Origin: Bacillota bacterium
Lineage (GTDB): Bacteria > Bacillota > Clostridia > Lachnospirales > WQUN01
NCBI GenBank assembly: GCA_009778185.1
Contig: WRKG01000296.1
Coordinates: 1-47,341, forward strand
Length of the DNA: 47,341 nt
Direction of reading: 5' to 3'
In this document: positions 4,565-46,216 of the stretch, piece by piece
Position numbering within the stretch: the first letter of the stretch is position 1
How the letters are laid out: each line of letters begins with the position of its first letter
Position numbers and translations under genes: made by a program
The notes under the pieces: model-generated
Database searches by the model: none
What the model was told of the DNA's origin: nothing
The model's input: the letters and a program-made list of their open reading frames with translations, nothing else

Positions 4565-4610
4565 TTTTCCACAAAACAACAGTCGCAAATATTTTGTATT
4601 TGCGGCTGTT
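4565..4610 (+). repeat. 46-nt direct repeat containing a terminator-like hairpin, copy A
   Basis: TTTTCCACAAAACAACAGTCGCAAATATTTTGTATTTGCGGCTGTT. 43/46 identical to 6206-6251. Confidence 0.75.
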
Positions 4611-4743
4611 GTTGATTTTATAACAATTTTATTTTTTATTTACCTTATATGGACATTATCCGTCCCTATTTCAAATATTCTCATTTTTTACCTCCATTTT
4701 CGCCCAAAAACCAAAACAAAAATAAATTTTTTTATTCTTGCTA

Positions 4744-4772
4744 TTGACAAATCATTTTTTCTAGTATATACT
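4744..4772 (+). promoter_or_regulatory. Sigma-70-type promoter TTGACA-17-TATACT
   Basis: -35 at 4744-4749 and -10 at 4767-4772. Predicted TSS about 4779, followed by an about 175-nt leader to ATG 4954. Confidence 0.45.
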
Positions 4773-4778
4773 GTATTT

Positions 4779-4795
4779 ATTCTAGTTTGGGCTAG
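4779..4795 (+). repeat. 17-bp inverted repeat, left arm (ATTCTAGTTTGGGCTAG)
   Basis: Perfect reverse complement of 5589-5605. Confidence 0.8.
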
Positions 4796-4953
4796 GGTAT
4801 GCAATCATATTTACTTCTTACACTATATCACATTCGCATTTTACACTTGGCTATTTTAGCAAGGTATTGGAGAACATAGTCGATATTGGCTTTGTTCATG
4901 TTATGGGCTGATTTTACAGCCTTTGGTTAGTTCTTGTGAAGGAGGACTTTTGA

Positions 4954-5568
4954 ATGCAAAAATTGATATTAAGTTTAGTAATGGCGATTATACTTTCGCT
5001 TAGCACCGTTTCTGCTACTTTTGCAGCAGATTACAGCGTTAATGATTCAGATGAGATTGTTGGTGTACTTGTAGAACCTTATGAGATATTGCAACAATTT
5101 GCACCACGTACTTCCAATGGGCGTAATATTTCGCTCGAAAATTTAGATACACTAAATCAAATGGCATTAGATGCCGTTTTGAGAGACGAACTTCTATACA
5201 CAGCTGTTTTTTATGTTGACCATGAAGGCAATTTTCTTGGACAAGGCGATATTTTTTCTAGACAAGTGTTTTTTGCTAATGTTCTAAGAATAACTATGGT
5301 TGGCAGTCAATCAATTAATAATGCTATTTGGTTAGTTGAAAATATTGGCTCTTCAAGCATTATAGTAAATGCCTCAGCGGCTATATTCCCTTCCTCCCCT
5401 ATGAGTTCTACTAGTGCAAGCAGACAATTAGCATCGTTTGGTCGTTTTGAGATGACAACTATCACAGCTTCGAGTACCTGGACTCACTCTACATTTTCAG
5501 CTGGTATAAATGCTGTTGGTACTTCCGTTGGCACAATTAATGTTGGACCTTTCACTGTCCGCAGATAG
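4954..5568 (+). CDS. Hypothetical secreted protein
   Basis: 204 aa. Signal peptide ...LSTVSATFA/ADYS. GAAGGAGG RBS. Confidence 0.6.
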   Translation: MQKLILSLVMAIILSLSTVSATFAADYSVNDSDEIVGVLVEPYEILQQFAPRTSNGRNISLENLDTLNQMALDAVLRDELLYTAVFYVDHEGNFLGQGDIFSRQVFFANVLRITMVGSQSINNAIWLVENIGSSSIIVNASAAIFPSSPMSSTSASRQLASFGRFEMTTITASSTWTHSTFSAGINAVGTSVGTINVGPFTVRR

Positions 5569-5588
5569 TTAATAATCACTAATTAAAA

Positions 5589-5605
5589 CTAGCCCAAACT
5601 AGAAT
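5589..5605 (-). repeat. 17-bp inverted repeat, right arm (CTAGCCCAAACTAGAAT)
   Basis: Perfect reverse complement of 4779-4795. Confidence 0.8.
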
Positions 5606-5635
5606 TTAATTTTATGTGAATACTAGGAGGACTCT

Positions 5636-6130
5636 ATGAAAATATATAAACTAAAAAAATTGAAGTTATTGCTATGTGCTTTAACAATTCCATTTATATC
5701 AGCCTGTGCAGTGCAAGCCGCCGAAGAAACAGTCGTTACACAATCAGAAGAAGTAATAGTAATAGAAGAAACAGCCGTTGCACAATCAGAAGAAGTAATA
5801 GCAATAGAAGAAACAGCCGTTGCACAATCAGAAGAAATAATAGTAATATATGATGCTGAAACACCTAGGCTTCGTACACGTGCTGAAGTTGAACGGGCTT
5901 CACGAACTGAACCGCAACGCCCTGCAACGGAAGACGAAATAGCTTGGATTGTAGAAGGCATGGAGGAAACTTTATTAGAACTGCTCGCAAACGGCGACTA
6001 CGACAGAGCCGAACTACAACAACAAATGATAGATGATATTCTTTCGGGCGTGGTACCCATAACTTTCTTTGAATCATTTGACCGTAACGAGGAGATTGAT
6101 TTTGGTAATATGATTCCGCCATTTTGGTAA
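5636..6130 (+). CDS. Hypothetical lipoprotein with three 14-aa acidic repeats
   Basis: 164 aa. Lipobox FISAC. EETAVAQSEEVIAI x3. AGGAGG RBS. Confidence 0.6.
   Translation: MKIYKLKKLKLLLCALTIPFISACAVQAAEETVVTQSEEVIVIEETAVAQSEEVIAIEETAVAQSEEIIVIYDAETPRLRTRAEVERASRTEPQRPATEDEIAWIVEGMEETLLELLANGDYDRAELQQQMIDDILSGVVPITFFESFDRNEEIDFGNMIPPFW
5723..5848 (+). repeat. 3 x 42-bp in-frame tandem repeat
   Basis: Units at 5723-5764, 5765-5806 and 5807-5848, each starting GAAGAAACAG. Confidence 0.85.
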
Positions 6131-6205
6131 TATGATTCCGCCAAATGCAAACTAACATAAACAAGATTATTGTAAATTTTACTGCATTTTCTGCAAATAC
6201 GCAAA

Positions 6206-6251
6206 TTTTCCACAAAACAACAGCCGCAAATATTTTACATTTGCGGCTGTT
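6206..6251 (+). repeat. 46-nt direct repeat, copy B (overlaps terminator)
   Basis: TTTTCCACAAAACAACAGCCGCAAATATTTTACATTTGCGGCTGTT. Confidence 0.75.
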
Positions 6252-6254
6252 TTT
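6219..6254. terminator. Bidirectional intrinsic terminator between convergent genes
   Basis: Stem AACAGCCGCAAAT / ATTTGCGGCTGTT with 7-nt loop. T-run at 6250-6254 and an A-rich 5' flank. Confidence 0.65.
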
Positions 6255-6294
6255 CATTCATTTACATTTTGGTAAACGTTCCCAAATCCCAAAC

Positions 6295-9264: not shown

Positions 9265-9295
9265 GGTTTTTTCCTGTAATGTTAATAAATTTTTT

Positions 9296-9392
9296 GAAAA
9301 CGGGTGGATTTTGGGAACAACGGGCGAATATTAGGAAAACGGGCGATTTTGGGAAAACGGGCGATGTTGGGAAAACAGGCGATGTTAGGAAA
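9296..9392 (-). repeat. Five degenerate 18-20-nt tandem copies of the REP half-site (GAAAACGGGCGATGTTGG-like)
   Basis: GAAAACGGGTGGATTTTGG / GAACAACGGGCGAATATTAG / GAAAACGGGCGATTTTGG / GAAAACGGGCGATGTTGG / GAAAACAGGCGATGTTAG, running into the REP at 9393. Confidence 0.7.
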
Positions 9393-9417
9393 ACGGGCGG
9401 ATAATATCCGCCCCTAC
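9393..9417 (-). repeat. REP-like hairpin (ACGGGCGGATAATATCCGCCCCTAC), left member of an inverted pair
   Basis: Palindrome GGGCGGATAATATCCGCCC plus CTAC. Read on the minus strand it is hairpin plus T-run downstream of the permease gene. Confidence 0.8.
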
Positions 9418-9428
9418 GGTTGCGGGTT

Positions 9429-9453
9429 GTAGGGGCGGATATTATCCGCCCGT
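9429..9453 (+). repeat. REP-like hairpin (GTAGGGGCGGATATTATCCGCCCGT), right member of the inverted pair
   Basis: BIME-like head-to-head arrangement with an 11-nt spacer. Confidence 0.8.
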
Positions 9454-9668
9454 ATTTTCACGACATTGATTTAATATTTGTTCAACATTTATCCAAAATC
9501 TGTTCAACATCTATCCAAAATTTGTCAAAATCAACCAAAAATCCCAATTTCAAATTACAAATCCCCCAAAAAATCATATGGGCGGATTTTCGGAAACTCC
9601 GCCCAATACAATTTTATGGTTTACGGGCGAAAAATATCTGCCCGTACAAATCTATTGAAATCTCAAAA

Positions 9669-10616: not shown

Positions 10617-11606
10617 TTAAAATAGTGTTTCTTGACCAAGCAATTTTGCAATAAAGTTAGCGGCGGTCAACATAAGAATCGCCACGCCAGTACGCAAAAT
10701 GCCCGCTGCAGTTGCCAAACCAAAGTTGTTCATTTCAAGACCATAACGCAAAACGAAAATGTCGATATTTTCGGAACGTGTGATATTTACGCCGTGTCCC
10801 AAGAACCATTGAATTTCAAAGCCGCTAGTGAGCAGCCAGCCGACGTTCATAATAAGCAAAATTACGATTGTCGAGCGAATGCTAGGCAACGTAACGTGCC
10901 AAGCCTTGTGATAGCGGTTAGCGCCGTCAATAGATGCCGCCTCGTACAGCGCGGGATCGATTGCCGTCATTGCCGCCATGTAGATAATCGTGTTCCAACC
11001 GAGATTTTTCCACAACATACTGCCAGCTACAATTCCCCAAAAATAATTGGGATTAGCCAAAAAGTGGATAGGCTCGTGGATAATGCCGACAGCGAGTAAT
11101 GCGTTATTGATAAACCCGCCAGAATCGGGCAAAGCAAGTGCGGTCGAAACCAAACCTGCAACGATAACCCAACTTAAAAAGTGGGGCAAATACAAAAAGT
11201 TTTGGATAATGCGTTTTACGCCAATTTGCCGCACTTCGTTAAGCATTAACGAAAGCAAAATTGTAAAGAAAAATCCTAACGCAAGCGAAAGAATACTTTG
11301 CCCTAAAGTGTTGACAACGGCTCGCATAAAGCGTTGTCCGATAAGGGCGCTTGTGTCTAACAGCGTGATAAAGTGTCCAAAGCCAACCCACTCGCTAGTT
11401 GCAACCTGCTGAAAAATGTTTGCACCAACCCGTGGGCGAAAGTTTTGAAACGCCATAACCCAGCCTAATAAAGGCACATAGGCAAATACGATAATATACA
11501 AAAACATTGGCACGCTCATCATTAGCAGTTGCCATTGTGCAAGTATTGCCTTAAGTTTGCCGCCTTTTTTTTCTTGTTTGTTGCTTTTTGTTGTTACTGC
11601 ACTCAT
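10617..11606 (-). CDS. Carbohydrate ABC transporter permease (LplB-type)
   Basis: EAA loop EAASIDGANRYHKAWHVTLPSIRS. Start moved to ATG 11606 (MSAVTTK) because AAAGGTGG at 11614-11621 is its RBS. Confidence 0.85.
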   Translation of the reverse strand: MSAVTTKSNKQEKKGGKLKAILAQWQLLMMSVPMFLYIIVFAYVPLLGWVMAFQNFRPRVGANIFQQVATSEWVGFGHFITLLDTSALIGQRFMRAVVNTLGQSILSLALGFFFTILLSLMLNEVRQIGVKRIIQNFLYLPHFLSWVIVAGLVSTALALPDSGGFINNALLAVGIIHEPIHFLANPNYFWGIVAGSMLWKNLGWNTIIYMAAMTAIDPALYEAASIDGANRYHKAWHVTLPSIRSTIVILLIMNVGWLLTSGFEIQWFLGHGVNITRSENIDIFVLRYGLEMNNFGLATAAGILRTGVAILMLTAANFIAKLLGQETLF

Positions 11607-11616
11607 AAAAATACCA

Positions 11617-11634
11617 CCTTTCAATAGGTATAAA
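11617..11634 (-). repeat. 18-nt leader repeat (minus strand TTTATACCTATTGAAAGG), copy 1, upstream of the LplB-type permease
   Basis: Identical to 13030-13047. Similarity extends to about 28 nt with 1 mismatch and 1 indel. Confidence 0.75.
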
Positions 11635-11681: not shown

Positions 11682-13019
11682 TTAATGTAACGTTAATCCC
11701 AATGTGTTCAATATTAAATCTGCTCTTACGTACCAACCGATATTAGGATTAGCTTCATTCCGAGCAACTATCATTCCAGAAACAGGATGCGTACTTCCAG
11801 CGGATTCAGTGTAAACAAGTCCTCCGCTATCGCCTTGTTGAACAGTCCTAGAAAAGGTAACAGGTACTGCAAGAATGGTAACACCATGTATATTTATATT
11901 GCTACCCAAAGAATTTATTCTTCCCACGTTAATCCCAGACCGTGATAAACTAACAACTGCATTCCCTACCACTGGTGTAGCAACGAATGTTCCTAGTGAG
12001 CCAGAAGGTAACCAATTAGTAACCGAAGCACCTGAAAGCGTTACAAACGCAGCATCTCGTATATGAGATATGTCAGTGGCACTTTGTATCAAACCCACAA
12101 GCTGAGTAGTAGTATTACCAGCATATACCCTAGTGTTTGAGGTGAAAAAACTTCCTCCTGAATGTGCTGCTGTAACAAAACCATTTACACTACCTCTTCT
12201 AGCTCTAAACCCTAGTGATCTGGTGCCACTTGATGTAGAGATAGAATTTCCAGAATTTAGCTGTACATTAAGTGGAGAAATGATGTTTTCGTCTTCGTTG
12301 TAAAATTCTGATTCTTGAGGAATTAACTCGTAATCTTCTTCGTCGTAAAATATGAAATCTTCAGGTATAAAGTCAGGTATTGGTTCAACCGTAAAGGTTG
12401 ATTCAACAAAATGTAGCGTAGGCGAGTCTAAAACAGTAGACCTAAACAACTCAATTTGCTCTGGAGTATATTCGTGTAGATAAATAACTACTCTATTTTG
12501 AATAATGTCCAAAGAAAATACATTTGCTATACTAAAAACCCTCTGAACATCTGCAGCAGCAATTCGTTGAATGTACTCCATATCAGCGACAAGTTCGTTG
12601 TAAGAAAATTCCACAAATCTAAAAAGCGAGCCTAATTCAGAAAATGTGCGAGCGTTAAAAGAATCGGTAAAAGTATCGGTTTCTACGAGCAAAGTAACTA
12701 ATATACCAGCATCATTGATATATACTCCACCAAAAAAATCGGGGTGTACTGTTTCTCCTGCTCTATTTTGCGGGAAAGTTGCCATTATTTCGTCATGAAT
12801 TTTTAGCGATTCGTTTTGGTTTTGCATAAATTCCACTCCAAACGCTTCAACAAGGTAATTTTGGACATCTGCCAAAAAATCCTCATTTTGGAAATAGTCT
12901 TCGGGAAAAATCACGTTATCGTATTCCGCCGAAACAGTAGACATCATTGCTAAGTTAAAAATCATTGTAAATGATAATAAAATCGCAATAAATTTACTTT
13001 TTGTTAAGTTTGTATTCAT
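11682..13019 (-). CDS. Secreted S1-family serine protease (alpha-lytic/streptogrisin-like) with N-terminal pro-region
   Basis: NGFVTAAHSGG (His) and QQGDSGGLVY (Ser). Signal/TM FIAILLSFTMIFNLAMMSTVSA. Start set to ATG 13019 with GGGGG RBS. Confidence 0.8.
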   Translation of the reverse strand: MNTNLTKSKFIAILLSFTMIFNLAMMSTVSAEYDNVIFPEDYFQNEDFLADVQNYLVEAFGVEFMQNQNESLKIHDEIMATFPQNRAGETVHPDFFGGVYINDAGILVTLLVETDTFTDSFNARTFSELGSLFRFVEFSYNELVADMEYIQRIAAADVQRVFSIANVFSLDIIQNRVVIYLHEYTPEQIELFRSTVLDSPTLHFVESTFTVEPIPDFIPEDFIFYDEEDYELIPQESEFYNEDENIISPLNVQLNSGNSISTSSGTRSLGFRARRGSVNGFVTAAHSGGSFFTSNTRVYAGNTTTQLVGLIQSATDISHIRDAAFVTLSGASVTNWLPSGSLGTFVATPVVGNAVVSLSRSGINVGRINSLGSNINIHGVTILAVPVTFSRTVQQGDSGGLVYTESAGSTHPVSGMIVARNEANPNIGWYVRADLILNTLGLTLH

Positions 13020-13029
13020 TTGATTACCC

Positions 13030-13047
13030 CCTTTCAATAGGTATAAA
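13030..13047 (-). repeat. 18-nt leader repeat, copy 2, upstream of the protease gene
   Basis: Identical to 11617-11634. Confidence 0.75.
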
Positions 13048-13160
13048 AGGTTGGGATTTTTTAGGTCGATTTCACATTTCAAACCATAAAAACCTCAAAA
13101 TCAACCATAAAAATCCCAACCCAGCTAGGTTATAAAATTCATAAAACTGAAATTTACCGA

Positions 13161-15056: not shown

Positions 15057-15320
15057 CGTGAAGTGATAAATTGGATAAATTTAACAAGCATGAAAAATTT
15101 TTTAGGGTAAAATGGATAGCTGTTGTGAAAATTCACATGGTTTGCTAAAAAATATCTGTTAATATTGTATATTATAAACAAGGGATTTTTATTTGTCAAG
15201 TGGTTTGGGAAATTTTTTTTGTAAATATTTTTATGTTTTTTTATAATTGAGATGTTTTAATTGTAATAAATAACTACAAGCCTGTCAACAGCATGAGAAA
15301 TTGCACCGTTCACGGAATAC

Positions 15321-15343
15321 GAGCGAATAATATCCGCCCCTAC
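15321..15343 (-). repeat. Decayed REP copy (GAGCGAATAATATCCGCCCCTAC) with conserved head CTACAAAACATCTAAAATTT
   Basis: The right arm and flank match 45931-45955 and 46025-46050. The left arm is mutated. Confidence 0.6.
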
Positions 15344-15414
15344 AAAACATCTAAAATTTGAATATCAAATATCAGCAAAAAAACCCCCAACAAAATCCCA
15401 AAAATAAAAATCCC

Positions 15415-18879: not shown

Positions 18880-18896
18880 GCGATATTTCACACACC

Positions 18897-18921
18897 GTAG
18901 GGGCGGATATTATCCGCCCGT
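18897..18921 (+). repeat. REP-like hairpin (GTAGGGGCGGATATTATCCGCCCGT) inside the permease-ATPase spacer
   Basis: Identical core to 9429, 34024 and 46096. Confidence 0.8.
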
Positions 18922-18930
18922 TATACTAAA

Positions 18931-22883: not shown

Positions 22884-24626
22884 TTATCGTAATATTGGGG
22901 CACCATTCATATAAGGAGTATGACCATATCGCCTATAAAGCACGTTTATCTCTGGAAAATCGATTACTTGACCAGTTGCAATATCTACAACCATAGGTGT
23001 ATACGGAGGTCCCCCTATTGTAACGCCAGGAGATTCAAAATCTTCGGCGTACCAAATATCGAGATGTGTATTGAAATATTGAAAATATTGATATAATGCA
23101 CCTATTCCCGAAACGAGAACAATTATAGCTCTATCAGAACTTATATCCGTCCAAACAGGGTCTGACAGTACAGCTCCTGTGTAAGGACCTATTGCATTCG
23201 GCACTTTAGCTACTACAACTGTGTTTCCTGTAGAAAAAATGCTTTCTTGTCTTGAGGTATAACTATTATTTGAAGTTGGAAATGTGCGAGCGGTACGATG
23301 TATATACAATCCATTAAAATTAAGTGCTACACCATCAATATAAAGTTTACCATTTTTGACTTCGGGTTCGGGCAAAGCCAAATTCTCCTCAACTACCGAC
23401 AACGAATAACTACTAGTTGCACTATATCCACCGTTAAGGCTACGTACTTCAATATAAAAAGTAGTATTTTGCGGCAACTGCCAAATTCTCGTTTCCTCGT
23501 TTGCACTTGCAAATGCTGCTAACAAATTTAAGTTGTAATCGTACAAATAAACAGCATAAGTTGCACCGTTCGGCACGTTTGACAAAGTAACGTTTAATAA
23601 ATCGGAATCGCCTGTTGTAAATGCAAACCAATCAACATCCAAAGGACTGTCGAGCGTTTGGTTGGCGGTAAATGGCAAAGTGTGTTCTCGTGCATCTAAT
23701 GCGTTGTCGTCAAATTCGGAGTTGTCAAAATCTGTAGATGTATGGATTATAAAATTGTACAATCCGTTTACAGGTGCTAATGGAACAAGTTGCAGAAAAT
23801 ACATATTTGTTGTAGGCACAAGATAACTAACCTGTTGCAAGACATCTGTAGTATAATATGCGGAAATTGCAACCGCATTAAGCATATTGCCATCGAGTCT
23901 GTATAAAACTACTGCGTAAACTCCGTACATTGGTTGCTCTAATGCTACTGTTAGCTTGGTGTTTTCGGGAGCAACAAATGCGTACCAACTTTCGTCAGCA
24001 CTAGATATGTTTGTCAACCACAATCCAAACAGAGAGTTATCCACAATGTAAGCATTATTTGGATTTGTATTAAAACGCACCGTTCTTGTTGATGTTTCGA
24101 AAGGATATGTTACAGAATTTTGTGGGATTGTTACATCTTCAAAGGTGTTTCCAAGCAAGTTGTCAACATTTATAGCAACAGGAGCATTTTCGCCGTTTAG
24201 TTCGTCAACTAAAATGTCAACCTCTAAAGTTGCGTTTGCGGCAAATGGTGCAACAACGTTTTCTATGTTTAATTCGCGATGTTGTAGTTCCATTGGAACA
24301 GATTCTACTTGCTCGGTAATTTCTTCCGAAAGTTGATTTTCAACAGTTTCTTCGGTTTCGTATTCTATGTAATTTTGGTCAACCGTTGTTTCTGGTTCTT
24401 CAAGTTCGGTAATTTCTTCCAAAATAGGCTTTTCAAAAATTTCTTCGGTTTCGTATTCTATGTAATTTTCGTCAACCGTTGTTTCGGTTTCTTCCAGTTC
24501 GGTAACTTCTTCCAAAACGGGATTTTCCAAGAAATCGTCCGCATTTGCAAAAGTTACAGTCGGCAATATCATTGTAAAAACTAGCATTAAAGCCATTATT
24601 GCCGTAAAAAATTTTTTTCCATTCAT
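22884..24626 (-). CDS. Secreted protein with acidic 31-aa repeats and two pre-peptidase C-terminal (PPC)-like domains
   Basis: 580 aa. Signal ...PTVTFANA. WYAFVAPENTKLTVAL and VDWFAFTTGDSDLLNVTLSNVPNGATYAVYLYD resemble PPC domains. No catalytic motif seen. Confidence 0.55.
   Translation of the reverse strand: MNGKKFFTAIMALMLVFTMILPTVTFANADDFLENPVLEEVTELEETETTVDENYIEYETEEIFEKPILEEITELEEPETTVDQNYIEYETEETVENQLSEEITEQVESVPMELQHRELNIENVVAPFAANATLEVDILVDELNGENAPVAINVDNLLGNTFEDVTIPQNSVTYPFETSTRTVRFNTNPNNAYIVDNSLFGLWLTNISSADESWYAFVAPENTKLTVALEQPMYGVYAVVLYRLDGNMLNAVAISAYYTTDVLQQVSYLVPTTNMYFLQLVPLAPVNGLYNFIIHTSTDFDNSEFDDNALDAREHTLPFTANQTLDSPLDVDWFAFTTGDSDLLNVTLSNVPNGATYAVYLYDYNLNLLAAFASANEETRIWQLPQNTTFYIEVRSLNGGYSATSSYSLSVVEENLALPEPEVKNGKLYIDGVALNFNGLYIHRTARTFPTSNNSYTSRQESIFSTGNTVVVAKVPNAIGPYTGAVLSDPVWTDISSDRAIIVLVSGIGALYQYFQYFNTHLDIWYAEDFESPGVTIGGPPYTPMVVDIATGQVIDFPEINVLYRRYGHTPYMNGAPILR
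24347..24532 (-). repeat. 2 x 93-bp tandem repeat (31-aa acidic units)
   Basis: TTTCTTCGGTTTCGTATTCTATGTAATTTT begins at both 24347 and 24440. Confidence 0.8.
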
Positions 24627-33943: not shown

Positions 33944-33985
33944 ATTTTTACCTCTTTAATTTTATGATTTGGCAAAGGCTAAAAT

Positions 33986-34010
33986 GCGGGCGGATAATAT
34001 CCGCCCCTAC
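33986..34010 (-). repeat. REP-like hairpin, left member of an inverted pair
   Basis: GCGGGCGGATAATATCCGCCCCTAC. Confidence 0.8.
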
Positions 34011-34023
34011 GGTTTGGTGGTTT

Positions 34024-34048
34024 GTAGGGGCGGATATTATCCGCCCGT
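34024..34048 (+). repeat. REP-like hairpin, right member of the inverted pair
   Basis: GTAGGGGCGGATATTATCCGCCCGT followed by TTT and a decaying tail (TCCGCAATATTTCACAC...). Confidence 0.8.
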
Positions 34049-34130
34049 TTTCCAAATCCGCAATATTTCACACTTTGCGACAATACACCCATTGTGAATA
34101 AGCGTAATATTTCAAATGCTGATTTACCTC

Positions 34131-34526
34131 TTATAATGTGGAATTTTCCTCTGTTTCCTCTGTTTCTTCTAAAATTATTTGCGGATTTTCCGATTCTTCC
34201 GTGATTTTTGGCAATTCGTTTAACAAATCCTCTAAATATTGAAAATTGCTGTTTTCGTCAGTAATTTGCTCAAAGCCAAACAATTTTGCAGTAACTGCTC
34301 CTGGGAAATTGCTTATGTAGCGATTATATTTGTCCACCGCTTTTTGATAGGCAGTTTGCAACTTTTGTATTTTTTCTGGTTGACTAAAATCGCTGGTTTC
34401 TAGCAGGTTGGTTAATTCTTTCAAAATGCTTTCGGTTTTGCCAAGTTTGGATGTTAAGCTGGTAACCAAAAAGGTGATTCCCAGCGAAACCGCAATTACA
34501 GCCACAAAAAACAATGTGATAGACAT
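34131..34526 (-). CDS. Short LemA-like membrane protein
   Basis: 131 aa. N-terminal TM. AVDKYNRYISNFPGAVTAKLFGFE matches the LemA C-terminal motif. Confidence 0.5.
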   Translation of the reverse strand: MSITLFFVAVIAVSLGITFLVTSLTSKLGKTESILKELTNLLETSDFSQPEKIQKLQTAYQKAVDKYNRYISNFPGAVTAKLFGFEQITDENSNFQYLEDLLNELPKITEESENPQIILEETEETEENSTL

Positions 34527-34528
34527 AA

Positions 34529-36190
34529 CTAAATTTTGAACAGTGCATCAAATTTAGTTAGCAACACAAAATTTCCGCGCACTTTTATTCTGCCAATCAT
34601 AAAGGCTTTTTGGGCTGTATGAGTGCCTTTTAGCACATCGTGCCAATTTTTTGATTCGGCAATTATGTTAATTTCGGGATTTTCGGCAACGCCTTCAGTG
34701 TATTCACATTCGCTGTTGACAATCGTGAGATAGCCATTAAATGCGTCTGTTCCAGTTATTGTAAACTGGATTACCGCACGTAATCCCGCCGATATTTGCG
34801 GTTGAAAATAATGCGGTAAATTTTGCGTAAGCTGTTTTACTGTTTTTTGTGCTGGCAGTTCTGGTTTTTTTGCCTCTTTCGGCGGTTTTTCGGTTGACAA
34901 TTCCTGATTTTTGGGAAATTGCGGTTTGGTTGGCGTTCTTTTGGCTAGCTGTTCGCTTGGAGCATAATTTTGCAAAAATTGTGGCGGTTGTGGTGCTTTT
35001 GGCGAAAAAGTTGGCTCTTTGGGTTGGCTGTAATTTTGTGGCTCTTGCGGTTGGCTGTAATTTTGTGGCTGTTGCGGTTGAACATAATTTTGTGGATTTT
35101 GCGGATTATAATTTTGCGGTTGATAATTATACGGCTGATTGTAATTTACTGGCTCGTGATAATTATAATCCTGCGGATTTTGCGAATTTGGCAAAACTGG
35201 CGAATGCGTAGAAACTGGCGAAAAATTTTGATTTTGTGGATGTTGCGAACCTTGCAAAACAGGCGAATTTTGCGAACCTGCCGAATTTACCGAATTTTGC
35301 GAACCTGTCGAACTTGTCGAACCTGTCGAAAAAGGCAAATTTTGCTGAACAGGAGGAGCGTGATGAATCGGCGGTTGTGTTGGTGGTTGCTGATAATTCT
35401 GTTGATAATTTTGTTGATTTTGAAAATTTACAACAGGCGGTGGAGAATTTTGTGCATCCGTATATTTTTGCGTAAAAAATTGCGTAAGTTCGTGAGTAGC
35501 TTGTTCGTTGCGTTCGGCTTGCTCAATTTGCGGGGCTTTTTCGTACGGAGTATTGTGCATATTTGGCTGTTGTATGTACGCAGTTGGAATGCTAGGATTT
35601 ACCTGGGCAATTACAGTAATCGAGTTATCCAAAGGTACAATATATTTGCGATTTTGTCGAACCGAACGGTACAAATCTTCCGCAATTTTTTCGACAATAT
35701 CCCGCACAGAGCCGGGTTCAACGTCAACGCCGCCTTCGATAGTCATTGCATAATTTTCTTGCAAGCCAATGCGGCCGCTTTCGAAGCCGCCAAAATAGCA
35801 AATTGTTCTTCCCAAATAATCCAAAGCGGTACGTTCGCCGCCATTTTTGGACACAACTATTGGTAGACAATATTTTTCGAATAAAACATCATTATATTCG
35901 TTGCATTCTAAAAATTCCAAAAAAGTTTGCAAAATAGAACTTGGTGCAAACAGTTGCGAAGTACAAGCCAAAATAATACCTTTAGAGTTACGCAACCGCA
36001 AAATAATGTCGTCCATAACGCGGGCGCGCAATCCGTCAAAATAAGACATTTGTGCAAAGCCTAAATTTATTTGATCAACTTCCATATCTAACTCGGTTAA
36101 TGCGGCGGCAACAATGGAAATAACTCGGTTAAGTCCAAAATCGTAATGCGGAATGCTGCCGTTGACAATAGCAATTCTCATAGTATCCAT
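34529..36190 (-). CDS. Fusion protein: flavodoxin-like/FMN-reductase-like N-domain, about 230-aa Q/N/P/Y-rich linker, SCP2 sterol-carrier-like C-domain
   Basis: 553 aa. N-terminus MRIAIVNGS.... C-terminus AVIQFTITG...AQKAFMIGRIKVRGNFVLLTKFDALF is SCP2-like. Confidence 0.6.
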   Translation of the reverse strand: MDTMRIAIVNGSIPHYDFGLNRVISIVAAALTELDMEVDQINLGFAQMSYFDGLRARVMDDIILRLRNSKGIILACTSQLFAPSSILQTFLEFLECNEYNDVLFEKYCLPIVVSKNGGERTALDYLGRTICYFGGFESGRIGLQENYAMTIEGGVDVEPGSVRDIVEKIAEDLYRSVRQNRKYIVPLDNSITVIAQVNPSIPTAYIQQPNMHNTPYEKAPQIEQAERNEQATHELTQFFTQKYTDAQNSPPPVVNFQNQQNYQQNYQQPPTQPPIHHAPPVQQNLPFSTGSTSSTGSQNSVNSAGSQNSPVLQGSQHPQNQNFSPVSTHSPVLPNSQNPQDYNYHEPVNYNQPYNYQPQNYNPQNPQNYVQPQQPQNYSQPQEPQNYSQPKEPTFSPKAPQPPQFLQNYAPSEQLAKRTPTKPQFPKNQELSTEKPPKEAKKPELPAQKTVKQLTQNLPHYFQPQISAGLRAVIQFTITGTDAFNGYLTIVNSECEYTEGVAENPEINIIAESKNWHDVLKGTHTAQKAFMIGRIKVRGNFVLLTKFDALFKI

Positions 36191-36202
36191 AATTTTCTCC
36201 TT

Positions 36203-37765
36203 TTAACTTGGCAAATCGGGCAATCTAATTGTATTTAACCAATAACTAAAAAAACTTGATAGCGGTCTGCCGTCAATTTCTTGGGCTAGCGCGATAAAAT
36301 CGGCAGAGTTTGTCCGCGAAAATGCGTAACGAGAATAATATTCTCGCAAAAGTTGCCTAAAATTTTCTTCGCCAATCTCGTGAAACAGCGAATAAAACAT
36401 TAGTTGCGATTTTCTGTGCTGTATTCTAAAATAATCCATCCAATTTTGGTAGACATTTATTCTATTATTCAAACGCCGCAAATTGGAATCCTCCACTGTG
36501 CCTTGACGACCTAGCAAATAGTTGTGTTCTCGTTCCATTGCGGTGCGTAGTTCGGCGGGCTGTTCCAAAAGCCCTTCGTGCAAAAACATTACTAAACCGC
36601 CGCTTAACCATGCTTCTTCGATGGGATTTGTGCCAACAACTACCGAAAACCATTGATGACCTATCTCGTTTCGCAAGCTGGTTAGTGTTTGAGATGTTCG
36701 CAAATGGTTGCTATCCATAAATATTGTGGCAGAAAAATTTTCGGCGTTGCGAAACATATCGGTTTCGACAATATTAAGCTGGTGATACGGCAACGATCCA
36801 AGCGTTTCCTCAAAAAATGCGACGCTTTCGCTAGCTATTTCCAAAATATGCTCGGTGTTAATATCGGCGGTATAATGGTACAAAGCAATTTCTTGACCAG
36901 ACAAAGTTGTAGTGGTTGCCCGTTGAAAATGCGGCGAAATTGCAAAGGCAAAATCTCGTATCATAGGAGCGTTAAAGCTAGTTATAGTACGCTGTTCGTC
37001 TTCAAGCTGAAGTTGCGTTTTTGTGCCAGCGCCAACCACAACATAATTTATCGGCGTATTTATATCGATAATATAATTTACTGTGTTTAATACAAACGGG
37101 TTTCCTATCGGATAAAATGAATCCGTTTGCCAACCGTTTGCTCCAAAAACCGCCTCGAACGGAAGAAACGCACCGCCCCAAATTGCTAGATTATTGCTAC
37201 CAGTACGATGCGCCATCGCTGGAATTTGCGCCTCAAATTGTAGCATAATTTGCACCGTTTCGTTGGGATATAATGTCAAGGGCAAATCTATTGTTAAAAT
37301 TGTGCCGTTTAGCTGAAAATTTAGCACTTCGTTTCCTTGCGAAACTAGCAAAATATCCATATTTGCGTAGGTTTTGTCGTTGCGAAAAATTCGGTTAAAA
37401 AATTCGTCTGGGTACGGTTGAATCGGCTCGGATTGCCGCCAAGCATTAAGCGGCACTCTAAAAACTAACTCGTTCAAGGGAAAATCGGTACGATTACTAT
37501 AAGTAACCGTTTGCATACCGCTAATAGTGCGTTCGGTTTCGTCAAAAAATAGCGAAACAGAATATTCATTAAAAAGCGGAACAACCACATTTTCAATGGG
37601 AGTAGCGGGTTCTAGCAAGGTTAAAGCAACCTCTTGTAAATGCGGCGGCGTATTTGTAATTATAACGGGCGGTGCAGGAATATCTAAACTTTCAAGCGGA
37701 GCAACATCTTCACAAGCAACCAAAAACAAGCATAATAAAAAAATTGGCAATATTTTTTTTTGCAT
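36203..37765 (-). CDS. M1-family metallopeptidase-like lipoprotein with degenerate zinc site
   Basis: 520 aa. Lipobox FLVAC. RNAEN (cf. GAMEN). NEIGHQWF...EEAWLSGGL aligns with HExxHQWF...WLNEGF. Confidence 0.7.
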   Translation of the reverse strand: MQKKILPIFLLCLFLVACEDVAPLESLDIPAPPVIITNTPPHLQEVALTLLEPATPIENVVVPLFNEYSVSLFFDETERTISGMQTVTYSNRTDFPLNELVFRVPLNAWRQSEPIQPYPDEFFNRIFRNDKTYANMDILLVSQGNEVLNFQLNGTILTIDLPLTLYPNETVQIMLQFEAQIPAMAHRTGSNNLAIWGGAFLPFEAVFGANGWQTDSFYPIGNPFVLNTVNYIIDINTPINYVVVGAGTKTQLQLEDEQRTITSFNAPMIRDFAFAISPHFQRATTTTLSGQEIALYHYTADINTEHILEIASESVAFFEETLGSLPYHQLNIVETDMFRNAENFSATIFMDSNHLRTSQTLTSLRNEIGHQWFSVVVGTNPIEEAWLSGGLVMFLHEGLLEQPAELRTAMEREHNYLLGRQGTVEDSNLRRLNNRINVYQNWMDYFRIQHRKSQLMFYSLFHEIGEENFRQLLREYYSRYAFSRTNSADFIALAQEIDGRPLSSFFSYWLNTIRLPDLPS

Positions 37766-37780
37766 ACGAAATTCCCCCTT

Positions 37781-37870
37781 TTGTGTTAAAATAGATATGT
37801 AAATATTATATCATGTATTTGTAAGTTTGTCATTTATTATTGTATAAAAAGGATGTTATTTGTGAAAATT
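37781..37870 (+). repeat. 90-bp perfect direct repeat, copy 1
   Basis: Base-for-base identical to 39003-39092 (period 1222 bp). Confidence 0.95.
37805..37833 (-). promoter_or_regulatory. Promoter ATGACA-17-TATAAT (copy in DR1) driving the M1-like operon
   Basis: -10 at 37805-37810 and -35 at 37828-37833 on the minus strand. Confidence 0.5.
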
Positions 37871-37946
37871 AGCAAAAATACCAATAAAAATAGGCTTGAC
37901 AATTTTTCAATATTTTTCAAATTGTCAATCCTAAAATATTTCAAAG

Positions 37947-38447
37947 CTAAAAAATATCGTTATAAAGTTTGTGCCACGGTTCGGATTTGTTTAATGTCAA
38001 CCGGTATTTTGCAAAAATTTGCTCGTATTCGTACATTTTAAGTTGCATTGCAGGCACTTGCGATGCCAACGAATGTATTAGAAAAAAATATTCTTGCAAC
38101 TCGTTTTTGCAAAGTAGCAAGGAAAAATGTTTAACGAAAGTTAATTCTAACCTAAAAAACAAGGTTTCTTCGGTTGCATTTTGCGAGATTGTTTCGTAGG
38201 CATTTTGTAAGGTTATGTCTGTCAATGTTGCTCCTAAATTGGACTTTATAAGAAAAACAGCTAATTGCAAATATTTTCGCAAAATATCGTCTTGCCAATC
38301 GTAAAAGTTTGTGTCTATTTCGGCGGTTGCTGGAATTTCTTGTAGATACAATTCGTTAAATTGTAAAATTGTGCTATCTAGCCAAGCGTGTTTGTTTGCG
38401 TAAGTCCATTTTAGCATACGAGTGTAGTTTGTTGAAAAAGTATCCAT
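37947..38447 (-). CDS. Hypothetical protein, paralog B
   Basis: 166 aa from ATG 38447 (GGGAGG RBS). Shares ELYL.E, KYLQ.A, TLQ.AY, N.T.EE and L.EYF with paralog A. Confidence 0.6.
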   Translation of the reverse strand: MDTFSTNYTRMLKWTYANKHAWLDSTILQFNELYLQEIPATAEIDTNFYDWQDDILRKYLQLAVFLIKSNLGATLTDITLQNAYETISQNATEETLFFRLELTFVKHFSLLLCKNELQEYFFLIHSLASQVPAMQLKMYEYEQIFAKYRLTLNKSEPWHKLYNDIF

Positions 38448-38449
38448 TT

Positions 38450-38977
38450 TTATTCCTCCCATTTGCCTATTTGCTCCGCTTTGGAGGATAAATTCCAACG
38501 TTCCACAAACAGAGGTTCGTATTTGGATAAATCCACTTTTGGCGAGACAATTTTGCTTATCATCGAAAAATATTCTTTCAAGGCGAAATTACTCAACAGT
38601 AAAAATGATTCCTTGATTAGCAATAATGGCAACCTAATATTTTGCAATTCTTCCTGTGTAGAGTTTGCCACAACCGAATCATACGCCGTTTGCAAAGTTA
38701 CAGCTATTGCAGTTGGCACAATCCCGCACGATTGCACAAGAAAAGCAAATTGCAAATATTTGTCAACTTTATCGGTTGTCCAAGAATTAAAGTCAACATC
38801 AATTTGCTCAATTAAATCGTCTACATAGCCAGTTTCAAATTGAAAATTTTTGTATTTTTCATATAAATATAATTCTGTTATGTTTATTATTGTTTTATCG
38901 ATAATATTTTGACTAGTTTGCGTTAAATTTAGAAGTTTGGCGTAATGACTTAAAGGTTGGTTATCCAAAATTTTCAT
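38450..38977 (-). CDS. Hypothetical protein, paralog A
   Basis: 175 aa. AAAGGAG RBS. No signal peptide or known motif. Confidence 0.6.
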   Translation of the reverse strand: MKILDNQPLSHYAKLLNLTQTSQNIIDKTIINITELYLYEKYKNFQFETGYVDDLIEQIDVDFNSWTTDKVDKYLQFAFLVQSCGIVPTAIAVTLQTAYDSVVANSTQEELQNIRLPLLLIKESFLLLSNFALKEYFSMISKIVSPKVDLSKYEPLFVERWNLSSKAEQIGKWEE

Positions 38978-39002
38978 CTCCTTTCTAATAATTTTTTCGT
39001 AA

Positions 39003-39092
39003 TTGTGTTAAAATAGATATGTAAATATTATATCATGTATTTGTAAGTTTGTCATTTATTATTGTATAAAAAGGATGTTATTTGTGAAAATT
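39003..39092 (+). repeat. 90-bp perfect direct repeat, copy 2 (contains the true murG RBS and start)
   Basis: Identical to 37781-37870. Confidence 0.95.
39027..39055 (-). promoter_or_regulatory. Promoter ATGACA-17-TATAAT (copy in DR2) driving the paralog pair
   Basis: Same sequence as 37805-37833, shifted by 1222 bp. Confidence 0.5.
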
Positions 39093-40160
39093 GTTTTAAC
39101 AGGCGGCGGAACAGCAGGACACGTTACGCCAAACATTGCTTTATTGCCAACTTTGGCAAAATTGGGCTATCAAGTAGAATATATCGGCAGCCACAACGGA
39201 ATCGAGCGCGGCTTGATAAATCTTTGTGAAATACCTTATCACAGTATATCTAGCGGAAAATTGCGCCGTTATTTTGACCTAAAAAATTTTACCGATATTT
39301 TTCGCATTATAAAAGGCTTTTTTGATGCGTTGCTAATTTTGCGAAAAATTAGACCCAACATTATTTTCAGCAAAGGCGGATTTGTGGCTGTTCCTGTTGC
39401 GTTGGCAGGGCATATTTTGAAAATTCCGATAGTTATTCACGAATCGGATATAACTCCAGGTTTGGCAACCAAAATTATTATGCCGTTTGCAAAAGTTGTG
39501 TGTGCAAGTTTTCCCGAAACGGTAAAACACACAACAAAAGGCATTTTAACAGGAAGTCCAATACGAGAAGAGTTAATTTTGGGCGACAAAACAATCGCAA
39601 TGCAGTTATGCGGGTTTGACAAGTTTGACAAAAAATCGCAAAAGCCGATTATTTTGGTCATCGGCGGCAGTTTAGGAGCAACCACAATTAACAAGCACAT
39701 CTTCGAACTTTTGCCAACTTTATTGGAAGATTTTCACGTGATTCACGTTTGCGGAAAAGGCAATATTTCTGTGGATGCTTGCCCAGGATATGCTCCTTTT
39801 GAGTACGTACAAGAGGAACTTCCGCATATTTTTGCGGCTGCCGATTTGATTATTTCGCGAGCGGGTGCAAATACCTTGTTCGAACTTTTGGCATTAAAAA
39901 AGCCGCATTTGCTTATCCCGCTAACACGAGCAGCCAGCCGCGGCGACCAAATTTTGAATGCAGAATCCTTTGAAAAGCAGGGTTTTTCCGCCGTTTTGCA
40001 AGAAGAACAACTCGAAAATTTGTATCTCGCAATTTTGGATTTGTACGAAAAAAGGGAAATGTATGTAAGCCAAATGCAAACCAAAGAAACTAGCAAAGGT
40101 ATAGATAATGTAATTGCACAAATAAAACAGTGGACAAAAGTCGGCAAAGACATTGAATAA
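39084..40160 (+). CDS. murG: Undecaprenyldiphospho-muramoylpentapeptide beta-N-acetylglucosaminyltransferase
   Basis: KIVLTGGGTAGHVTPN. GTG 39084 is preferred (AAAGGA RBS, 8-nt spacing) over ATG 39075. Confidence 0.95.
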   Translation: MKIVLTGGGTAGHVTPNIALLPTLAKLGYQVEYIGSHNGIERGLINLCEIPYHSISSGKLRRYFDLKNFTDIFRIIKGFFDALLILRKIRPNIIFSKGGFVAVPVALAGHILKIPIVIHESDITPGLATKIIMPFAKVVCASFPETVKHTTKGILTGSPIREELILGDKTIAMQLCGFDKFDKKSQKPIILVIGGSLGATTINKHIFELLPTLLEDFHVIHVCGKGNISVDACPGYAPFEYVQEELPHIFAAADLIISRAGANTLFELLALKKPHLLIPLTRAASRGDQILNAESFEKQGFSAVLQEEQLENLYLAILDLYEKREMYVSQMQTKETSKGIDNVIAQIKQWTKVGKDIE

Positions 40161-40174
40161 AGGAAGTGCTTTTC

Positions 40175-40924
40175 ATGGAAAAATCTTTTGAATTTGTTAG
40201 CAGAAACTCTGTTAAACAATCGTCAAGCAATGGTTATGCAGAAAAATTTGAACAGGATGGATTTTGGTACAAAGCCAATGTTGGTGCATTTAATTCTCAT
40301 GCAGAAGTGGTTGCTTGCAGGTTGTCAAAATATACAAATGTGAACAAATGCGTTGAATATTCTTTAATTAAGCAAAATAATGAATATTTTACTAAATCTG
40401 CCGACTTTATAAAAGGAAGACCTTTTGAAACCTTGTCAAGTTTGCATTCCAAAGTAACAGGCACTTCCATTGAATATGTGCAAAATACTTTGTTTGGGGA
40501 AAAATTGTTCACGTACGTTATAAACTTTGTTAAATCTGCCGTTAAAAAAGATGTAACTGAAGATTTAGTAAAAATATTAAAATTTGATGCTTTTGTCCTA
40601 AACGAAGATAGACATTTTAAGAATTTGGCTTTATTATTAGTCAATAATCAATGGGAAATTTTTCCAATGTACGATTTTGATTGTGCTTTATTTTCGTGTA
40701 TCGAGGATTTAGATAACTTGCCAACCGAACATAAATCGTTGCCATTTTTCTTTACACACAATGAACAGTTGCGATTCTTAAATAAAATATCTAATTTTAA
40801 GCTAATTGTTAAACCTTTTAATCCACAACAAATTATTGACAACCTTTGGGATAAAGAATATACTATAGGTAATGATGTAATTTTAGCTTATTTGGAAACT
40901 GTAAAAGGAGGTTTAACTTTATGA
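40175..40924 (+). CDS. Minimal HipA-family kinase core (no N-terminal subdomains)
   Basis: 249 aa. GYAEK, LNEDRHFKNLAL and FPMYDFD align with HipA GAQEK, ATDGHAKNFS and TPFYDI. AGGAAG RBS 8 nt before ATG 40175. Confidence 0.7.
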   Translation: MEKSFEFVSRNSVKQSSSNGYAEKFEQDGFWYKANVGAFNSHAEVVACRLSKYTNVNKCVEYSLIKQNNEYFTKSADFIKGRPFETLSSLHSKVTGTSIEYVQNTLFGEKLFTYVINFVKSAVKKDVTEDLVKILKFDAFVLNEDRHFKNLALLLVNNQWEIFPMYDFDCALFSCIEDLDNLPTEHKSLPFFFTHNEQLRFLNKISNFKLIVKPFNPQQIIDNLWDKEYTIGNDVILAYLETVKGGLTL

Positions 40925-41256
40925 TTTCAATGTTTAACTGCGAATTTAACTACTACTACATGGGAGAAAAAACTGCTCATGTCAAAATAGTCAATGGACA
41001 CGCCACTACCGAGCAGTTTTCGAAAGAATGGTACAGGTTGCCTTTTGGAATGGTTCCCGATCACAATGTCCGCCGCGAAACTATCCGCATTTTCTTCGAA
41101 GAGCATTGCATTCCCAAGCACCGCAAAGATTTGCAAAAGTTTTTGGATTACTACGGTTTAGAAAAATGGGATGCCTTCAAAATTTGCAGAATAACCAACG
41201 GCGAACACGCCCATAAATACGGCTTTATTGAATGGTTAGATAAACAACAAAATTAA
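40921..41256 (+). CDS. Small protein translationally coupled to the kinase; possibly HipA-N-terminal/HipS-like
   Basis: 111 aa. ATGA overlap and AAAGGAGG RBS. WYRLPFGMVPDHNVRRETIRIFFEEHCIPKHRKDLQKFL. Confidence 0.6.
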   Translation: MISMFNCEFNYYYMGEKTAHVKIVNGHATTEQFSKEWYRLPFGMVPDHNVRRETIRIFFEEHCIPKHRKDLQKFLDYYGLEKWDAFKICRITNGEHAHKYGFIEWLDKQQN

Positions 41257-45299: not shown

Positions 45300-45563
45300 C
45301 TAATTGTAGGGGCGGATAATATCCGCCCGTTTTTCCCTACAGCTGCAATTTTTCAACCGCTGTTTCGCATTATAATAAAATAAAAAAATCCAAAACGGCT
45401 CGGTTTTGTGCCATGTTTTGGATTTTTTTCGGTTGTATAATTTGGAATTTGGCTTTTTGCGTGTTATCGGGTTTATATCCCAGCTATTACGGGCGGCTTT
45501 GTAATGCTCTTTTTGGCATTTTTTGGATTGCTTTTCGATTGGTACAAATTTTTTGTTTTGCAT
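45300..45563 (-). CDS. Small basic hypothetical protein; C-terminus reads through a REP
   Basis: Only the N-terminal about 50 aa (MQNKKFVPIEKQSKKCQKEHYKAARNSWDINPITRKKPNSKLYNRKKSK) look protein-like. The last residues (ADIIRPYN) are REP translation. Confidence 0.3.
   Translation of the reverse strand: MQNKKFVPIEKQSKKCQKEHYKAARNSWDINPITRKKPNSKLYNRKKSKTWHKTEPFWIFLFYYNAKQRLKNCSCREKRADIIRPYN
45306..45330 (+). repeat. REP-like hairpin, likely acting as the mraY terminator
   Basis: GTAGGGGCGGATAATATCCGCCCGT followed by TTTTT. Confidence 0.75.
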
Positions 45564-45791: not shown

Positions 45792-45909
45792 GAAAAATTT
45801 TTTATTTTTAGAAAAAATTTTTTGGCAAGATGCAAAATAAAATGTGAATATAATCGAACAAATTAAAAATAAATTTATGCGGATTAAAAACAAATTTATG
45901 TTGAAGAAA

Positions 45910-45934
45910 ACGGGCGGATATTATCCGCCCCTAC
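45910..45934 (-). repeat. REP-like hairpin
   Basis: ACGGGCGGATATTATCCGCCCCTAC. Confidence 0.8.
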
Positions 45935-46102
45935 GAAACATCTAAAATTTTAATATATTATTGGATAATATCACGGATAATGAATAAGCCGAGGATATTG
46001 TAGGGGCAATCGTCTCGATCGCCCCTACGAAACATCTAAAATTTTAGTATATGATTGGACAATATCACGGATAATCGAACGAGTCGATAATATTTGTAGG
46101 GG
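45928..46102. repeat. Two tandem about 95-nt composite units (CCCCTAC - about 66-nt conserved segment - GTAGGGG)
   Basis: 45928-46006 and 46022-46102 align along their length (CGAAACATCTAAAATTTTA.TATAT.ATTGGA.AATATCACGGATAAT...). Confidence 0.7.
46000..46028. repeat. REP variant with a different, self-complementary stem (GTAGGGGCAATCGTCTCGATCGCCCCTAC)
   Basis: GTAG and CTAC on both sides; 9 of 10 stem pairs. Confidence 0.7.
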
Positions 46103-46120
46103 CGGATATTATCCGCCCGC
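46096..46120 (+). repeat. REP-like hairpin
   Basis: GTAGGGGCGGATATTATCCGCCCGC. Confidence 0.8.
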
Positions 46121-46216
46121 ATTTTTTGCCTGTCCGCACCAGGCGGGTTAAGTTGATTTAACACATTATAAATTAAACGGCTATTGACATTTTTCAACAA
46201 AACAAATTCAAACAAA

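Follow-up and report, generated by a model that had tools for sequence, protein, structure and literature searches.

How two small genes came to lie between the cell-wall gene murG and a divergently oriented peptidase operon, with the same 90 bp on either side of them, was the question raised by this locus. It is located on contig WRKG01000296.1 of assembly GCA_009778185.1 (Bacillota bacterium; Clostridia, Lachnospirales, WQUN01), and the window analysed here was this entire JGI contig of 47,341 nucleotides. The closest genome match to the contig was the Defluviitaleaceae metagenome-assembled genome Th196P1bin9, the habitat is the termite gut, and genes for xylan utilisation, flagella and the cell wall were found along the contig. 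The locus is probably an insertion with long target duplication (ILTD), a class that is known but mechanistically unsolved, with a previously undescribed protein family as its cargo.

Direct repeat around the insert

Positions 37781-37870 and 39003-39092 formed a direct repeat identical at 90 of 90 bases with a spacing of 1222 nt, just as the initial annotation had described; it occurred twice, and no other long repeat in the window was perfect. The edges were sharp (37780 is t and 39002 is a), the downstream flanks being unrelated with no decayed homology beyond the edges. The repeat spans from 15 nt upstream of the start codon of the M1 peptidase gene, just outside its ribosome-binding site (RBS), to codon 3 of murG. 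At the left end of copy 1 (CCCCCTT/TTGTGTT, the slash marking the edge) the context beside the M1 RBS was conserved with relative L003, and at the right end of copy 2 (GTGAAAATT/...) the sequence ran into the conserved murG N-terminus KIVLTGGG, again in a context shared with L003. With both outer ends in conserved native context, the repeat would comprise practically all of the native intergenic region, which measures about 96 nt.

Both copies were also present in MEGAHIT contig k141_922682 (L002, ENA), which matched 19.4 kb of the JGI contig with 100% identity. As k=141 is longer than the 90-nt repeat, reads must span both junctions in this assembly. In the Logan k=31 assembly of SRR5248856, contig L001 of 1192 nt was composed of the 1132-nt insert and 30 nt (k-1) of the repeat on each side, which is the length expected for a unique segment between two repeat copies. 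These assemblies rule out an assembler artefact.

Genes and signals of the insert

The insert's GC content was 0.325, against 0.408 for the M1 gene, 0.400 for murG and 0.397 for the contig, and the low value of 19/60 noted earlier for 38581-38640 was confirmed. Gene B starts 2 nt past the stop codon of gene A; for the latter an alternative TTG start at 38968, giving 172 aa, is better spaced from the GGAG RBS. The two products were paralogs, as had been proposed, with 30% identity over 155 aa (E 3e-18). The motifs ELYL.E, KYLQ.A, TLQ.AY and L.EYF were common to both, while another motif given for the pair, N.T.EE, fitted them only partly (NSTQEE vs NATEET).

The hairpin reported behind gene B was present, but its arms were 15 nt long and 93% complementary instead of the 10 bp claimed; the minus-strand RNA folded at -16.5 kcal/mol (z -2.9), with a U-rich tract next to it. 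The near-consensus minus-strand promoter ATGACA-17-TATAAT was found in both repeat copies, agreed with the consensus at 11 of 12 positions and carried an extended TG. An Rfam search of the region gave no match.

On the plus strand, two features of the initial annotation became doubtful. The first was the murG start at ATG with the codons ATG TTA TTT GTG AAA ATT. The most likely start is GTG 39084 (MKIVLTGGG), which has AAAGGA 8 nt upstream, was used in two of three public gene calls (JGI and ENA, 358 aa) and has the same position in relatives, and the duplicated coding sequence would then be 9 nt. The second was the promoter TTGTAA-18-TATAAA, whose -10 element ends 3 nt before the RBS and which failed a promoter scan. 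The relic open reading frame (ORF) described at 37853..38041 does exist; it is probably no gene, and the relic murG start that copy 1 carries may give rise to antisense transcription.

Table 1. Features of the murG locus and loci of the same architecture (L, locus outside the window with its own coordinates)
Feature	Position	Strand	Repeat or product size	Description
Direct repeat copy 1	37781..37870		90 nt	native murG-M1 intergenic region with 9 nt of the murG 5' end; would now serve the M1 operon
Direct repeat copy 2	39003..39092		90 nt	predicted cassette promoter on minus strand; murG upstream region, RBS and first 3 codons on plus strand
Insert	37871..39002	-	1132 bp	RBS, gene A, gene B, terminator; no promoter of its own; absent from relatives
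Gene A	38450..38977	-	175 aa	intact; all-alpha protein (model), new small family
Gene B	37947..38447	-	166 aa	intact; paralog of A; profile match E 5e-83
Terminator-like hairpin and U-rich tract	37871..37933	-		arms 37891-37905 / 37919-37933; U-rich tract 37871-37890; 3' end of cassette
Promoter-like site, copy 2	39027..39055	-		ATGACA-17-TGnTATAAT; predicted to drive A and B
Promoter-like site, copy 1	37805..37833	-		identical to site of copy 2; predicted to drive M1 peptidase/flavodoxin-SCP2/LemA operon
Relic ORF	37853..38041	+		from duplicated murG start in copy 1; antisense through terminator and 3' end of gene B
murG	39084..40160	+		N- and C-terminal GT28 domains; heads the murG-(insert)-murE-murF-mraY operon
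Operon 3' of copy 1	34131..37765	-		M1-family peptidase lipoprotein 36203-37765; flavodoxin-like/SCP2 34529-36190; LemA-like 34131-34526
Repeat-bracketed unit, window murG locus			90 nt, 100%, spacing 1222	genes A and B and terminator; insert GC 0.325
Repeat-bracketed unit, L016	302-1760		108 nt, 98%, spacing 1351	tandem family pair P0011 and P0014; insert GC 0.286, flanks 0.41-0.43
Repeat-bracketed unit, L021	4042-5614		156 nt, 86%, spacing 1417	secreted-protein gene and family member P0018; insert GC 0.332
Repeat-bracketed unit, window	4522-6258	+	96 nt, 84%, spacing 1642	repeats 4522-4617/6164-6258; two secreted-protein genes, not of the A/B family; GC 0.360

Empty sites in relatives

An empty site in related genomes, the comparison proposed at the outset, was found in L003/L009, L010 and L012, which are distant relatives. 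In L003/L009 (M1 72% identical), mraY-murF-murE-murG is divergent from M1-flavodoxin/SCP2-LemA. In the metagenome relatives L010 and L012 (M1 52-53% identical), murG and M1 are divergent neighbours with about 45-85 nt between them, which the native spacing of about 96 nt in the window resembles. The cassette was absent from all of these loci, indicating that the ancestral arrangement was divergent with a short spacer and that the cassette is derived. The empty relatives, the AT-rich insert and the native ends of the repeat together bear out the earlier proposal that a cassette of about 1.13 kb entered the divergent murG/M1 promoter region with duplication of 90 bp.

A separate observation concerned L003, where the murG-M1 intergenic region has grown to 450 nt. 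At 5488-5745 a GC-rich insert of 152 nt is enclosed by a direct repeat of 53 nt (87% identity, spacing 205) with a TTGACA promoter-like motif in it, possibly the outcome of duplication plus insertion on a small scale at this very site.

Recurrence of the architecture

Self-comparison of about 146 kb of non-redundant loci revealed only four non-coding direct-repeat pairs bracketing units of 1.2-1.6 kb (Table 1). The duplicated sequence was different at each of the four loci and corresponded roughly to the entire local intergenic region, and every insert was AT-rich, those of L016 and L021 being 1.2-1.3 kb long. The repeat-bracketed architecture was present at three of the 11 non-redundant loci of the A/B family, plus a weak fourth, at unrelated sites.

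The repeat of L016 is a strong palindrome (-45.5 kcal/mol) that takes up nearly all of the gap between two convergent genes, its edges lying 7 nt past the stop codon of one gene and 6 nt short of that of the other. An empty-site comparison through its RsmF-like flank yielded only homologs of at most 51% identity, too distant for use. In L021 the repeat is made up of the terminator of an upstream resolvase gene and the leader of the downstream gene, and ends 17 nt before the downstream start codon; this gene, for a serine recombinase (resolvase), is the immediate upstream neighbour of the first repeat, and a plasmid or phage context is suggested by the RepA_N, Mor and amidase genes close by. 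The second case in the window, at 4522-6258, has an 18-bp terminator stem in each repeat and an insert of about 1.55 kb with its own promoter; its secreted-protein genes (4954-5568 and 5636-6130) had no Pfam matches, and 42-nt tandem repeats (5723-5853) were seen within one of them. L023, in which a 34-nt repeat (91% identity, spacing 1581 nt) brackets a secreted-protein gene and family member P0017, is a weak possible fifth case. The repeat identities of 100, 98, 86 and 84% look like independent events of differing ages, of which the murG case would be the youngest.

Class assignment and known systems

Insertion with long target duplication was first inferred from genome comparison of Helicobacter pylori (Nobusato et al. 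2000, Gene 259:99), and was later surveyed with a duplication of >30 bp and an insert of <20 kb as criteria (Furuta, Abe & Kobayashi 2010, PMC2853133). The published repeats were 46-423 bp long, well beyond the target duplications of transposons, enclosed gene blocks of at most a few kb that relatives lacked, and matched one copy of the target sequence; no other mobile element was involved, GC content was often low, and the species were mostly naturally competent (PMC2853133). The cargo was mainly restriction-modification (RM) genes, for which DNA double-strand breakage by the cargo was suggested with the mechanism remaining unsolved, and the repeats were able to support amplification (PMC2853133). 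ILTD has been recognised for RM systems "and other DNAs" (PMC3457768).

The murG locus, with its 90-bp duplication and 1132-bp insert, falls within these limits. Like published cases, it is a short low-GC gene block between long direct repeats, it is absent from relatives that have the murG-M1 flanks (distant ones, 52-72% identical in M1), and no transposase, integrase, other mobility gene or inverted repeats were found on the contig, where the repeat was not multicopy within 47 kb. The cassette carries no RM genes, a cargo which is typical and not required. Differences exist in the host, published cases being mostly from Proteobacteria and naturally competent species whereas uncultured termite-gut Clostridia are concerned here, and in the duplicated unit, since the four cases here duplicate almost the whole intergenic region, promoter or terminator included. 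The empty site was also seen here in distant relatives and not within a species.

Other known systems were less similar. No terminal inverted repeats were detected in any of the four inserts (left end against reverse-complemented right end, scores no higher than the shuffled mean), no transposase, integrase or recombinase domain was found by Pfam in any sizeable ORF of the 47-kb contig, and the four inserts had no conserved ends in common. An insertion sequence (IS), a miniature inverted-repeat transposable element or a composite transposon was rejected on the lack of terminal inverted repeats in all four inserts and of a transposase on the contig. Insertion sequences of the IS1634/IS1549 type (IS4 family) make long, variable direct repeats, and encode a DDE transposase between terminal inverted repeats. 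The murG cassette is like them in its long target duplication but has neither transposase nor terminal inverted repeats.

Integron cassettes are alike in being small, promoterless and placed under an external promoter, possibly with a circular form, but they are not flanked by duplicated target, as the murG cassette is. The 90-nt repeat had no predicted secondary structure (z +0.8 and +1.2 vs shuffled sequence) and no palindromic core, and the integron cassette was discarded because the repeat folds no better than shuffled sequence, has no attC-like site and is accompanied by no integrase on the contig. Phage morons and accessory islets are likewise AT-rich accessory units with their own terminator wedged between conserved genes; however, morons have their own promoter and no long flanking duplication, while the murG cassette is the reverse and has no phage context. 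A retro-copied transcript was considered too, the cassette starting near an RBS and ending at the U-tract of a terminator, and was rejected because the other three cassettes have their own promoters or lack terminators.

Proposed course of the insertion

In the ancestral state, murG and the M1 peptidase operon would have been divergent with a bidirectional promoter region of about 96 nt between them. A foreign AT-rich segment of 1132 bp, promoterless and consisting of RBS, A, B and an intrinsic terminator, would have entered this region, and a 90-bp stretch of the target, with its limits immediately upstream of the M1 RBS and at murG codon 3, would have been duplicated on either side. Copy 2 would keep the murG upstream region, RBS and start codon, while its minus-strand promoter would now transcribe A and B as far as the cassette terminator. 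Copy 1 would supply the M1/flavodoxin-SCP2/LemA operon with an identical promoter of its own, and the murG start duplicated in it would be a dead-end relic. No flanking gene would have lost its expression signals, and this is probably the reason why an insertion beside an essential cell-wall operon was tolerated.

The leading candidate for the duplication route, put forward with modest confidence, is a pair of single-strand breaks at the ends of the intergenic region, followed by capture of a linear fragment and fill-in of overhangs of about 90 nt; the alternative routes could be template switching during replication or the Campbell-type integration of a repeat-carrying circle. The position of the breakpoints at gene boundaries may come from selection for survivors in which the signals of both neighbours were preserved, or may equally come from the mechanism. 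The insertion is plausibly recent, judging from the 90/90 identity and the less identical repeats at analogous loci, and RecA-dependent excision or amplification between the repeat copies would be possible.

Several points weigh against this account. The relatives with an empty site are all distant, so this was not an intraspecific comparison and it leaves the age of the insertion unconstrained. No protein more than 90% identical to the MurG of the window was found outside this contig set, hence no conspecific empty site was found. The interior of the repeat was too diverged for alignment with any relative, including the much-expanded intergenic region of L003, and gene conversion could keep the two copies identical. 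No donor sequence for the cassette was found in phage, plasmid and viral collections or by homolog search. Published ILTD cargo was RM genes with proposed DNA breakage, whereas no recognisable nuclease is encoded here. The promoter and terminator activities are predictions from sequence, and the JGI, ENA and Logan assemblies are probably from a single read set and sample, hence no independent replicates.

Alternative explanations

The rival that survives best, though we regard it as unlikely, is Campbell-type integration, in which a circle made of the cassette and one 90-bp copy, possibly from another cell of the same species, entered the empty murG-M1 site through one homologous crossover, which would make the repeats duplicated homology and not the product of fill-in. 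Perfectly identical copies of native sequence, with no recombinase and no terminal inverted repeats, are what such an event would leave; the k=31 contig fits a 1222-bp circle equally well, and amplification through such repeats is known. This route, however, leaves the origin of the first repeat-plus-cassette unit unexplained, it needs a separate pre-existing circle for each of four cases with four different duplicated sequences, and 90 bp is short for RecA-dependent recombination.

It is slightly less probable, in our estimate, that the all-alpha family of A, B and about 14 relatives itself marks or drives a minimal mobile cassette type of termite-gut Clostridia. Just as doubtful is the idea that such a family-driven cassette inserts by duplication of a whole intergenic region (90-156 bp) and needs neither a transposase or integrase nor terminal repeats. 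At 4522-6258 this architecture goes with unrelated cargo, which speaks for a process of the host lineage rather than for insertion driven by the family.

A still weaker case can be made for A and B as old residents of the locus, the second promoter copy having come later by dispersed duplication or gene conversion, with the repeats kept identical by concerted evolution and the cassette lost from relatives by repeat recombination. The distance of the empty-site relatives, the old divergence of the A/B paralogs (30% identity) and the older, diverged repeats at analogous loci would suit such a history. Three relatives would nevertheless need separate clean losses, and the two most distant have ordinary short intergenic regions; the cassette composition is foreign, the family is patchy and found in unrelated contexts, and identity stops abruptly at the repeat ends.

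Site-specific recombination, in which the repeats would be attL and attR and a small non-autonomous element would depend on an integrase or serine recombinase acting in trans, is considered highly improbable. Many integrated elements are flanked by direct repeats, and a resolvase gene does lie directly upstream of the first repeat in L021, but no recombinase was found on the 47-kb contig, no sequence is common to the repeats of the four loci, each of which is the local intergenic region, the murG repeat has neither predicted secondary structure nor palindromic core, and there are no conserved cassette ends. The att-like carry-over suggested in the initial annotation became unlikely on the same grounds: no integrase, a repeat with no predicted structure, and different duplicated sequences in the other instances.

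An origin of the cassette in another strain or as a separate replicon, joined to this metagenome contig in assembly by way of the shared 90-bp sequence, is hardly credible even with the cassette as a separate node in the k=31 graph, because the k=141 assembly holds both junctions and a replicon sharing the exact murG promoter region would itself need explaining.

Protein family of A and B

The insertion with long target duplication, which we prefer for the murG locus, would have brought in two members of a very small family. Searches of A and B against Pfam, NCBIfam, PADLOC and PHROGs gave nothing above noise, and a word-indexed homolog search with gene A alone returned only the self-match. 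When a profile of A and B was scanned with HMMER against 1.84 billion representatives, 14 further relatives were obtained (E 6.5e-17 to 7e-4, 89-181 aa), so the family comprised 16 representatives. It is characterised by the motif LQNAYE.I..N...EL..LRLQLLFVKKAI.LLH.G...DYF.LI..S. None of the members had a Pfam match, and a sequence-profile search of the PDB was empty as well.

An AlphaFold model built with the 16-sequence alignment was all-alpha with eight helices (pLDDT 87, pTM 0.84), while the model from the 2-sequence alignment was unusable (pLDDT 40). The model had no significant Foldseek match in PDB and BFVD, the best PDB entry being a 14-3-3 protein (E 0.77, TM 0.38). Neither tblastn of the cassette proteins against phages and plasmids nor the family profile against viral contigs gave a match.

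Members with a named source originated in the same termite-gut assembly series, one of them being annotated as Defluviitaleaceae. Most were solitary genes in mutually unrelated contexts: between a DUF368/VCA0040-like gene and a VanW gene, after a GNAT gene, after a SCIFF/radical-SAM pair, after a chemoreceptor gene, between rplA and rplJ, or on a plasmid- or phage-like contig. In L021 and L023 (two of 11 contexts, a weak hint) the family gene directly follows a gene for a small secreted protein, and the two secreted proteins had no significant similarity (E about 0.1). The neighbour-joining tree was star-like with bootstrap values of 20-34%, and a single ancestral pair for the tandem pairs of the window and L016 was not discernible.

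The initial annotation had speculated on an array of immunity proteins. This idea found no support, in view of the mostly solitary members in unrelated contexts, the lack of a recognisable toxin partner in the 11 non-redundant contexts and the absence of PADLOC, Pfam or NCBIfam matches. A and B would be cytoplasmic all-alpha proteins of a rare, mobile and lineage-restricted family, their predicted fold resembling neither nucleases nor methyltransferases. Our best guess, held with low confidence, is that they may act as non-enzymatic binding or partner proteins rather than as enzymes.

Two further placements of family members were observed. P0020 (L022, 294-776), from the same sample as the window, is wedged between the ribosomal genes rplA and rplJ. 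P0017 (L023, 3538-4465) overlaps the end of a gene for a 157-aa secreted protein and lies 0.8 kb from another murG homolog.

Neighbouring genes and other features of the window

Both domains expected of MurG were identified in the murG product (Pfam Glyco_transf_28 N-terminal, E 1.5e-37; Glyco_tran_28_C, E 3.2e-28). Within the same operon, murG and murE are separated at 40166-41256 by two genes, one for a HipA-like kinase at 40166-40924 (Pfam HipA_C, E 2.5e-7; PADLOC PDC-M03A, E 1e-10) and the other a 111-aa ORF at 40921-41256 (PDC-M03B, E 1.4e-3). The pair has a GC content of 0.329 vs 0.40 and is absent from L003, where murG abuts murE; a flanking duplication was looked for around it and none was found. 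It forms a second accessory insertion next to the murG cassette and is a candidate defence or toxin pair.

On the other side of the cassette, about 250 aa of the flavodoxin-like/SCP2 protein form a linker in which Q, P, N and Y abound, and 27-nt repeats occur in the DNA at 35012-35092. Its counterpart in L003 has a linker of like kind with different repeats.

Repeated sequences of other types also occurred in the window. A GC-rich palindromic REP-like element (GTAGGGGCGGATATTATCCGCCCGT) had at least 10 intergenic occurrences, often as inverted pairs, including 9389-9456, 9619-9648, 15315-15344, 18895-18924, 33982-34051, 45304-45333, 45906-45935 and 46094-46123. A run of 18-nt repeats of the GGGAAAACGGGCG type was located at 9289-9399, and a 93-nt in-frame tandem duplication with 81% identity (24290-24475) inside the gene 22884-24626, which encodes 580 aa. 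The adjacent genes 10617-11624 and 11682-13082 share 61 nt with 74% identity (11581-11641/12994-13054), covering the 5' untranslated region and first codons.

Significance

ILTD has been known from genome comparisons since 2000, with no established mechanism and mostly tied to RM genes. To this record, one pristine example (90/90) and three older ones (98%, 86% and 84%) would be added from uncultured termite-gut Clostridia, none of them with RM genes. A very rare protein family was defined as well, with a confident predicted fold and no solved match. The practical importance is modest, the host being uncultured and the function of A and B unassigned. The most interesting aspect is the recurrence, including the second case in the same window. 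Each case duplicates about one whole intergenic region, by which promoters or terminators would be kept for both neighbours and for the newcomer. This pattern shows how accessory genes can be slotted beside essential operons such as murG-murE-murF-mraY without polar damage, and suggests a tie between gene boundaries and the breakpoints, or else the survivors.

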